Source: a virus
Taxonomy: Duplodnaviria; Heunggongvirae; Uroviricota; Caudoviricetes
Length of the DNA: 47,553 nucleotides
Reading direction: 5' to 3' (one strand)
Virus record (IMG/VR): IMGVR_UViG_2734482568_000006
Below, piece by piece: positions 10,640 to 10,762 of the stretch. The notes under the pieces were generated by a model. The model ran no database searches. It worked only from the letters and a program-made list of their open reading frames with translations, and was not told where the DNA came from. A program made the translations under genes and the position numbers. Position 1 is the stretch's first letter; each line of letters begins with the position of its first letter.

Positions 10640-10666
10640 TTGACATGGTGTTGACACCGGTAATAT
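10640..10666 (+). promoter_or_regulatory. Candidate sigma70 promoter (TTGACA, 15 bp spacer, TAATAT)
   Basis: ttgaca at 10640-10645 and taatat at 10661-10666 on the plus strand, upstream of a terminator with no intervening plausible ORF. Confidence 0.3.
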
Positions 10667-10672
10667 CTGTTA

Positions 10673-10762
10673 GGTAAAAAGGTGCACTGCATTTTTTGCT
10701 TTGGATATAACGATCTTTTTGCCGCCGGTTTCTTGTTTTCCCTTACCGGCGGCATTTTTTTA
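10673..10762 (+). ncRNA. Candidate small RNA (promoter-to-terminator unit of about 90 nt)
   Basis: Lies between the candidate promoter and the intrinsic terminator at 10721-10762; the only plus-strand ORF crossing it runs antisense through the esterase gene and is judged spurious. Confidence 0.25.
10721..10762 (+). terminator. Rho-independent terminator (plus strand)
   Basis: gccgccggt ... accggcggc stem (9 bp) followed by attttttta; the reverse strand has an A-run instead, so it is unidirectional. Confidence 0.55.

Follow-up and report, generated by a model that had tools for sequence, protein, structure and literature searches.

Support for a divergent member of the EcOnc33 small RNA family in the esterase-DUF1378 spacer of a Mu-like prophage

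An unannotated small RNA unit beside a sialate esterase gene

The viral sequence analyzed here (47,553 nucleotides, Caudoviricetes, IMG/VR record IMGVR_UViG_2734482568_000006; hereafter the window) contains a short promoter-terminator unit between a sialate esterase gene and a gene for a small DUF1378 membrane protein. A first-pass annotation, made from the letters alone, had read this unit as a stand-alone plus-strand small RNA (sRNA) gene. That interpretation was right in substance, and our results support the assignment of the unit as a divergent member of the EcOnc33 family: the orthologous spacer in Escherichia coli O157 Sakai encodes the Hfq-bound sRNA EcOnc33. The choice of promoter and the size of the RNA had to be revised. 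The element is already known in kind, as EcOnc33 was detected earlier in E. coli O157; the variant described here is located in a Mu-like prophage. We consider it probable that the unit is a prophage-borne EcOnc33-family sRNA that acts by Hfq-dependent base-pairing in trans, with a possible additional effect in cis. This reading draws on homology, synteny, strand, terminator and promoter conservation, together with the published Hfq binding, size and hybrids of the orthologue. The genes and RNA elements of the locus are as follows.

10152-10406, minus strand: DUF826 gene, 84 aa, the third gene of the transplanted block (Pfam PF05696, 6.4e-16)
10442-10624, minus strand: DUF1378 small membrane protein, 60 aa (Pfam PF07125, 9.4e-32; RefSeq start ATG at 10624)
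10628-10634, minus strand: Shine-Dalgarno sequence of the DUF1378 gene, GGGAGGG
10686-10761, plus strand: predicted sRNA of ~76 nt, EcOnc33 homologue, start uncertain by ~3 nt
10686-10707, plus strand: 5' single-stranded region ACUGCAUUUUUUGCUUUGGAUA, probable seed; its Sakai equivalent CCUGCAUGUUUUGCUUUGGAU was found in CLASH hybrids
10713-10720, plus strand: U-rich stretch AUCUUUUU, directly 5' of the terminator (from the sequence)
10720-10754, plus strand: terminator hairpin with a 10-bp stem and the 15-nt loop UUCUUGUUUUCCCUU (10730-10744), from folding
10755-10761, plus strand: T7 tract, the 3' U tail (from the sequence)
10769-12823, minus strand: SASA/DUF6645 carbohydrate (sialate O-acetyl) esterase, 684 aa (Pfam PF03629, 1.5e-13, and PF20350, 7.4e-68; RefSeq)

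The unit had been placed between the esterase gene and a divergently oriented small membrane-protein gene. Both neighbors were found as described, but they are co-oriented on the minus strand, so the sRNA gene converges on the esterase gene and diverges from the DUF1378 gene only. It is antisense to the esterase-DUF1378 spacer. The sRNA -35 hexamer (10651-10656) is located 26 nt upstream of the DUF1378 start codon, and the esterase stop codon follows the T tract at a distance of 7 nt. As expected of the EcOnc33 family, the unit is positioned between the sialate esterase and DUF1378 genes and antisense to both, it has its own promoter and Rho-independent terminator, and the length of its predicted RNA (76 nt) is within 70-85 nt.

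The earlier statement that no plausible protein is encoded in the unit was borne out. No conserved ORF was found; every local ORF either lacks conservation or is antisense to the esterase gene, and indels of 11, 2, 4 and 5-6 bp separate the variants of the spacer. A 43-aa minus-strand ORF (10624-10755) and the plus-strand ORFs were rejected as coding candidates, being unconserved and broken by indels in other variants.

The orthologous spacer of O157 Sakai encodes EcOnc33

The window spacer was 80.8% identical to the spacer between ECs1527 and ECs1528 in prophage Sp6 of Sakai (aligned over 144 of 146 nt, E = 9e-29). The alignment is collinear from promoter to terminator, with the same neighbors on the same strand: ECs1527 is annotated as 9-O-acetyl-N-acetylneuraminate deacetylase and ECs1528 as a DUF1378 protein. 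EcOnc33 has been listed in Sp6 on the minus strand, with a predicted Rho-independent terminator (Tree et al. 2014, PMC4104026). It was recovered in all five Hfq-CRAC data sets and gave a northern band of ~71 nt (PMC4104026). The northern probe, AAATGTCGTTATATCCAAAGCAAAACATGCAGGAC (PMC4104026, supplementary probe table), corresponds exactly to the reverse complement of positions 4055-4089 of the retrieved Sakai sequence (L002), on the strand equivalent to the plus strand of the window. The probe match locates the published EcOnc33 in the orthologous Sakai spacer and thereby supports the window unit as an sRNA gene.

The ECs1527...ECs1528 spacer ranks 16th among the Hfq-bound intergenic regions. 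Hfq-CRAC reads for the two strands were 239630/351, 36545/1, 176412/477, 529284/707 and 19881/0, so that over the five experiments >99.8% of the reads came from one strand. In RNase E-CLASH, 99 intramolecular hybrid reads join the two arms of the EcOnc33 terminator (Waters et al. 2017, PMC5286369, Table EV7). The EcOnc33 5' segment CCUGCAUGUUUUGCUUUGGAU forms a hybrid with ECs5359 that was replicated and seen in both orientations (score 5.4, FDR 2.7e-4), and this segment also hybridizes with ECs0890 (PMC5286369, Table EV7). ECs5359 is arcA, and the hybrid spans the arcA start codon; ECs0890 is dps. We found no reporter-assay validation of the EcOnc33 CLASH partners in the literature. The name EcOnc33 appeared in no searchable main text of the later literature, and no paper taking EcOnc33 further was found. 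HnrS, an sRNA recently characterized by the same laboratory, was rejected as a later name for EcOnc33, because it corresponds to EcOnc10-12.

The two units have in common the esterase/DUF1378 neighbors, the antisense strand, the arrangement TTGACA-18-TAAAAA, the terminator stem and loop core, and the 5' motif CUGCAU(G/U)UUUUGCUUUGGAUAUAACGA. They differ in the terminator loop (15 nt in the window, 24 nt in Sakai), in an extra TT before the stem and a TAATAT created in the promoter spacer of the window, and in three substitutions in the seed segment plus one upstream, with a weaker predicted arcA pairing in the window. In addition, the window unit resides in a Mu-like transposable prophage, whereas that of Sakai resides in a lambdoid prophage.

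A conserved promoter predicts a shorter RNA

Four hexamers in the spacer are relevant to initiation on the plus strand.

10640-10645, plus strand: upstream TTGACA, the -35 of the first-pass annotation, 15 bp from TAATAT
10651-10656, plus strand: conserved -35 TTGACA, which aligns with the TTGACA of the Sakai EcOnc33, PasA, PasC and Sp5 units
10661-10666, plus strand: TAATAT, the -10 of the first-pass annotation, found only in the window-type variant and replaced by TAATAC or TAATGC in all other variants
10675-10680, plus strand: -10-like TAAAAA, non-canonical (no T at the last position), invariant in 33/33 DUF1378 loci

To compare promoters, the eight variants found by BLAST were aligned, and 25 distinct variants from prophage and metagenome contigs were compared. 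What stayed constant across the variants was TTGACA (10651-10656 in the window), a spacing of 18 bp, and TAAAAA (10675-10680). On this sequence evidence, these two hexamers would constitute the conserved promoter. The placement of TAAAAA fits the 5' edges of the EcOnc33 probe and of the CLASH reads in Sakai (L002 4055-4059). With this promoter, the RNA would be ~75-79 nt long and start near 10686, and not ~90 nt long as had been proposed; for the placement of the start we used promoter geometry as well as the 5' edges of the reads and probe in Sakai. The Sakai RNA itself, predicted at 79-83 nt, is longer than its northern band of ~71 nt.

Both hexamers of the pair proposed earlier are present, but 15 bp separate them and the TAATAT hexamer lacks conservation. 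The upstream TTGACA is changed to TTGATA, TTAATA or TCGACA in other variants, and TAATAC and TAATGC would be poor -10 elements because the last T is lost. This pair is therefore at best a weak extra promoter with a 15-bp spacer. A scanner that accepts spacings of 16-18 bp skipped it for the same 15-bp distance. As measured by the consensus scan against shuffles, promoter-like sites in the region are at chance expectation.

The segment 10640-10660 (TTGACATGGTG TTGACACCGG) carries two TTGACA hexamers 11 bp apart. Variants such as 1604D011 and ST865 do not have the 11-bp segment and retain a single TTGACA, which points to an 11-bp duplication or deletion within the promoter region.

The terminator is the strongest in the window and acts on the plus strand

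The strong intrinsic terminator described earlier, with a 9-bp GC stem and a T7 run, was recovered. The stem arms GCCGCCGGT (10721-10729) and ACCGGCGGC (10745-10753) pair with each other, and a U-A pair (10720/10754) extends the stem to 10 bp. The fold energy of the hairpin is -19.5 kcal/mol. The distance from -10 to terminator had been given as about 60 bp, close to the 54 bp that separate TAATAT from the stem. The site has the features of an intrinsic terminator, namely a GC-rich hairpin with a U tract directly 3' on the transcribed (plus) strand. A consensus scanner missed it only because the loop has 15 nt, whereas 3-8 nt are allowed. On both strands of the 47.5-kb window, three sites with a hairpin followed by at least T6 were detected, compared to a mean of 0.5 in shuffled windows. 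The site at 10720-10761 is the strongest of the three and exceeds chance. The predicted RNA, taken as 79 nt, folds with -23.6 kcal/mol (z = -4.66).

Read on the minus strand, the hairpin precedes AAAAAG and not a U tract, so it would terminate plus-strand transcription only and not transcription from the esterase gene. The stem hardly differs among the variants: G-C is replaced by G-U and C-G by U-G, and no other change occurs. These changes preserve pairing in the plus-strand RNA and would produce A-C mismatches in a minus-strand RNA, which fits a plus-strand RNA. No compensatory base changes were found in 8 or in 17 distinct variants, and the missing covariation signal is explained by the shallowness of the EcOnc33 family. 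The structure is thus supported by thermodynamics and by the published in vivo hybrids of the Sakai orthologue.

Together, the promoter and the terminator bear on the reading that the hairpin merely terminates transcription of, or stabilizes the 3' end for, the neighboring genes, and that the promoter-like hexamers are fortuitous. The hairpin does abut the esterase stop codon, and promoter-like matches in the region are no more common than expected by chance. We nevertheless regard this reading as very improbable. Only the plus strand has the U tract, and no upstream gene ends on that strand (its nearest ORF stops at 9984). TTGACN-18-TAAAAA is invariant across four unrelated transcribed bodies. 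For the orthologue the reading is contradicted by Hfq-CRAC and northern data, with the RNA coming from the plus-equivalent strand at a ratio >500:1.

Covariance models were used to relate the unit to sRNA families. Rfam has no covariance model for the EcOnc33 family, and no Rfam family reached its gathering score anywhere in the window. Our EcOnc33-family model scored 82.9 bits at the window sRNA, which was its single copy in the window. The scan for known sRNA families suggested in the first-pass annotation returned only a weak match to Esr41 (RF02676). This cmscan match is full-length (10681-10763, plus strand; 22.2 bits, E = 0.089), and Esr41 is comparable in being a pathogen-island sRNA of ~70 nt whose terminator is GC-rich and whose U tail is long. 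However, the gathering score of the family is 102, far above 22.2 bits, and most of the matched columns belong to the terminator and U tail. Esr41, which is EcOnc14, has a different seed and is encoded in the SpLE1 island beside iha and ter, a different slot. Membership of the unit in the Esr41 family can hardly be given any credence.

A second strong intrinsic terminator of the window is located at 38078-38120 on the minus strand (GGCGGTG...CACCGCC followed by T6, -14.9 kcal/mol). It lies between prophage genes and has a TTGACA upstream; its EcOnc33 model score is weak (11.8 bits).

The 5' segment as a putative seed

Most of the 5' pairing segment is identical in the two RNAs (CACUGCAUUUUUUGC in the window, UCCUGCAUGUUUUGC in Sakai). 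Compared to Sakai, the 22-nt seed segment differs at three positions (UC to CA, G to U), and a fourth difference is located just upstream of the predicted start. The predicted pairing with the arcA start region amounts to -18.2 kcal/mol for Sakai (p ~0.018 against shuffles) and to -13.5 kcal/mol for the window (p ~0.12). The weaker pairing of the window variant implies that the Sakai targets are not simply transferable and that the target set may differ. A search for trans targets within the window gave none that was convincing. The best non-self duplex, at 29609-29658 on the minus strand (-24.8 kcal/mol), was discarded because it belongs to the tail of the background distribution and is not at a start codon.

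Our preferred explanation can be outlined as follows. The sigma-70-type promoter TTGACA-18-TAAAAA would direct plus-strand transcription from a start near 10686, and the intrinsic terminator at 10720-10761 would release an RNA of ~76 nt with a 3' U tail. An internal U-rich stretch beside the terminator is part of the usual Hfq-binding module. Here, Hfq would be bound by the terminator hairpin, the U tail and the adjacent U-rich stretch. The unstructured 5' region ACUGCAUUUUUUGCUUUGGAUA would then base-pair in trans with target mRNAs. The partners captured with RNase E for the O157 orthologue are the arcA translation start region and dps, and pairing over a start codon would be expected to block translation and recruit RNase E. 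As the sRNA is fully complementary to the spacer of any mRNA that reads through from the esterase gene to the DUF1378 gene, it could additionally act in cis on this operon. For the window variant itself, we infer expression in this host, the exact start and the targets; by analogy with the orthologue, it would also be expected to bind Hfq.

The seed substitutions raise the question of whether the unit has become an inactive relic in the Mu-like prophage, that is, an EcOnc33 homologue which is no longer expressed or functional. These substitutions weaken the one replicated pairing of the orthologue, and the block is situated outside its usual setting in lambdoid late operons. On the other hand, the promoter hexamers, their spacing, the terminator and the U tract are all intact. 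Moreover, the unit is kept with 86% identity in the Mu-like prophage of CI5 at another chromosomal site, and the identical sequence occurs in at least 14 complete genomes; JE86-ST05 (NZ_AP022815.1, 809684-810684) and DLI.5a are strains that have it. We therefore judge loss of function to be improbable.

The loop core CUUGUUUUCCCU was invariant in all eight variants found by BLAST, whereas the variants differ in loop length and in the 5' part of the RNA. The core is complementary to purine-rich, Shine-Dalgarno-like sequences, including the AGGGA of the DUF1378 ribosome-binding site. A second function may reside in this C/U-rich terminator loop, such as pairing with Shine-Dalgarno sequences.

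An invariant C/U-rich loop would also suit a sponge, and we considered whether the RNA titrates a core-genome sRNA instead of regulating mRNAs. The anti-sRNAs AsxR and AgvB, which have 51-60 nt and act as sponges of FnrS and GcvB, are the relevant precedent (Tree et al. 2014, PMC4104026). Like the window unit, they are prophage-encoded, Hfq-bound and convergent to late-region 'moron' genes, and they combine a conserved 3' module with a variable 5' end; such convergent sRNAs in the 'moron' slots of lambdoid prophages form one class (PMC4104026). The resemblance ends there: AsxR and AgvB occupy neighboring prophage slots upstream of the esterase gene (3' of stx2B in Sp5), the window RNA of ~76-83 nt is longer than the 51-60 nt of the anti-sRNAs, and it shows no sequence similarity to AsxR or AgvB. 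Furthermore, the EcOnc33 hybrids examined are with mRNAs (arcA, dps) and not with sRNAs. A sponge function is accordingly an unlikely explanation of the unit.

A fixed position with exchangeable bodies

We retrieved 33 prophage loci through the DUF1378 protein alone, independently of the spacer. In all 33, the antisense strand carries TTGAC[A/T/G], 18 nt and TAAAAA, at 21-29 nt from the DUF1378 start, and TAAAAA is followed after 73-104 nt by a hairpin and a run of six or more Ts. Between promoter and terminator, four classes of transcribed body can be distinguished, with <65% identity between classes.

This constancy of position bears on whether the unit works mainly in cis. Antisense pairing with the polycistronic late mRNA could lead to RNase III cleavage and thus uncouple or silence DUF1378 and DUF826, or the convergent promoter could interfere with transcription derived from the esterase gene in the lysogen. 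The sRNA gene lies entirely within the spacer of two co-oriented genes, and since there is no minus-strand terminator, any read-through mRNA would be fully complementary to it. A position that is fixed at 21-29 nt from the DUF1378 start in 33/33 loci, while the body is freely replaced, is what would be expected if position outweighs sequence. The top RIL-seq partners of PasA, which occupies the same slot, include esterase mRNA 3' ends. Against a mainly cis role, EcOnc33 is abundantly bound to Hfq, and a defined 5' segment of it hybridizes with mRNAs of the core genome, as is typical of trans-acting sRNAs, and perfect antisense pairs usually do without Hfq. We hold a predominantly cis function to be possible but doubtful. 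It is compatible with the explanation by trans base-pairing, beside which an additional cis-antisense or transcription-interference role is to be taken seriously.

The PasA and PasC sRNAs of EPEC E2348/69, which correspond to EcOnc51/52 in EHEC, have been described previously (Pearl Mizrahi et al. 2021, PMC8550237; Zhu, Shabalina and Storz 2026, bioRxiv 10.64898/2026.05.13.724894). They share the slot directly downstream of, and antisense to, the SASA esterase gene, and the terminator of PasC also abuts the esterase stop codon. Further similarities are the TTGACA, a CTGT motif in the promoter spacer, an A-rich -10, Hfq dependence and a length of 79-85 nt. The same promoter-terminator frame was found in the PasA, PasC and Sakai Sp5 units; the loci concerned are L003 2755-3045 (prophage PP2, with PasA), L004 2330-2465 and L005 5584-5712, all on the minus strand. 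In contrast, the bodies are not detectably homologous to that of the window unit, the terminator stems differ, and the proposed PasA seed is within its terminator stem. Alignment with PasA and PasC showed identity in the promoter and the esterase 3' end only, and the EcOnc33-family model scored 10.6 bits for PasC (E = 3.6) and 12 bits for the PasC-like unit of prophage PP2 (E = 1.8). With no alignable body and covariance E values >1, the window unit was not assigned to the PasA/PasC family. The non-significant covariance match makes them positional analogues with a homologous promoter frame rather than demonstrable family members.

In E2348/69 prophage PP2 (L003 2755-3045, minus strand), two sRNA-like units are arranged in tandem downstream of the esterase gene. 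PasA is distal, and the PasC-like unit is proximal with its own TTGACA and terminator. This layout fits the reported 236-nt minor form of PasA as a read-through to the proximal terminator.

A broader interpretation, which we put forward only tentatively, is that the esterase-DUF1378 spacer is a dedicated exchangeable sRNA slot in which the promoter and terminator are fixed and at least five or six unrelated bodies have been swapped. The body types counted are the EcOnc33 type, the PasA/PasC type, the Sp5 type and three further types. EcOnc33 and PasA/PasC would then form one positional superfamily, and the block would have moved from lambdoid to Mu-like prophages. A recurring promoter-terminator frame with interchangeable bodies would be a compact natural example of phage sRNA diversification.

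In every DUF1378-linked spacer examined, the terminator abuts the esterase stop codon, with the PasA/PasC and Sp5 types adding further bodies.

Distribution and setting in a Mu-like prophage

The 146-nt spacer matched 361 of 5426 complete E. coli genomes by BLAST (~7%). In all eight match loci whose annotation was inspected, it lies between the SASA esterase and DUF1378 genes. Among sequenced phages the spacer was present in none of 50,697 records (near and distant mode), and on plasmids only two copies were found, both of the Sakai type. A 16-mer query against species-representative genomes was too short to be informative about other species: the matches listed, at least 120, were all at chance level. 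The unit carries no RNA feature in RefSeq.

The element surrounding the unit is a Mu-like prophage, with genes for MuA, MuB, Mom, Com, a tail sheath protein and a Gin-type invertase. JE86-ST05 is one of the strains in which it is inserted beside rhsC and ybfB. The gene order of the block, including DUF826, is also seen in lambdoid prophages. The sRNA unit of the CI5 Mu-like prophage, with 86% identity, has the same features as that of the window.

Through this assignment, an intergenic unit without annotation is connected to an sRNA that is known from experiments and for which there is no Rfam model. The assignment also indicates that an EcOnc33-type sRNA, together with the sialate-esterase block, has reached Mu-like prophages in strains other than O157. 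If the arcA and dps hybrids reflect real regulation, carrier prophages could tune the anaerobic and stress regulons of the host, and seed polymorphisms such as that of the window would alter which mRNAs are targeted in different strains. Of greater interest than the unit itself are the conserved sRNA slot and its occurrence in a Mu-like phage.

The block of esterase, sRNA, DUF1378 and DUF826 occupies 10152-12823 within a prophage that spans ~8500-47000. In lambdoid prophages it is normally flanked by the late promoter region and the holin gene; in the present Mu-like prophage it is located between the Gin-type invertase gene and com/mom. The block is also carried by the related Mu-like prophage of strain CI5, which is integrated elsewhere in the chromosome (xdhB region).

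The Mu-type com and mom genes are located at 9234-9479 and 8543-9475 on the minus strand, with the longest mom ORF overlapping com. In the identical prophage of JE86-ST05, com is marked as frameshifted by RefSeq. Between DUF826 and com, a plus-strand ORF (9691-9984) encodes WP_000571916.1, a hypothetical protein in RefSeq with no Pfam match. This ORF is opposite in orientation to all of its neighbors, and the same gene is present in the CI5 prophage.
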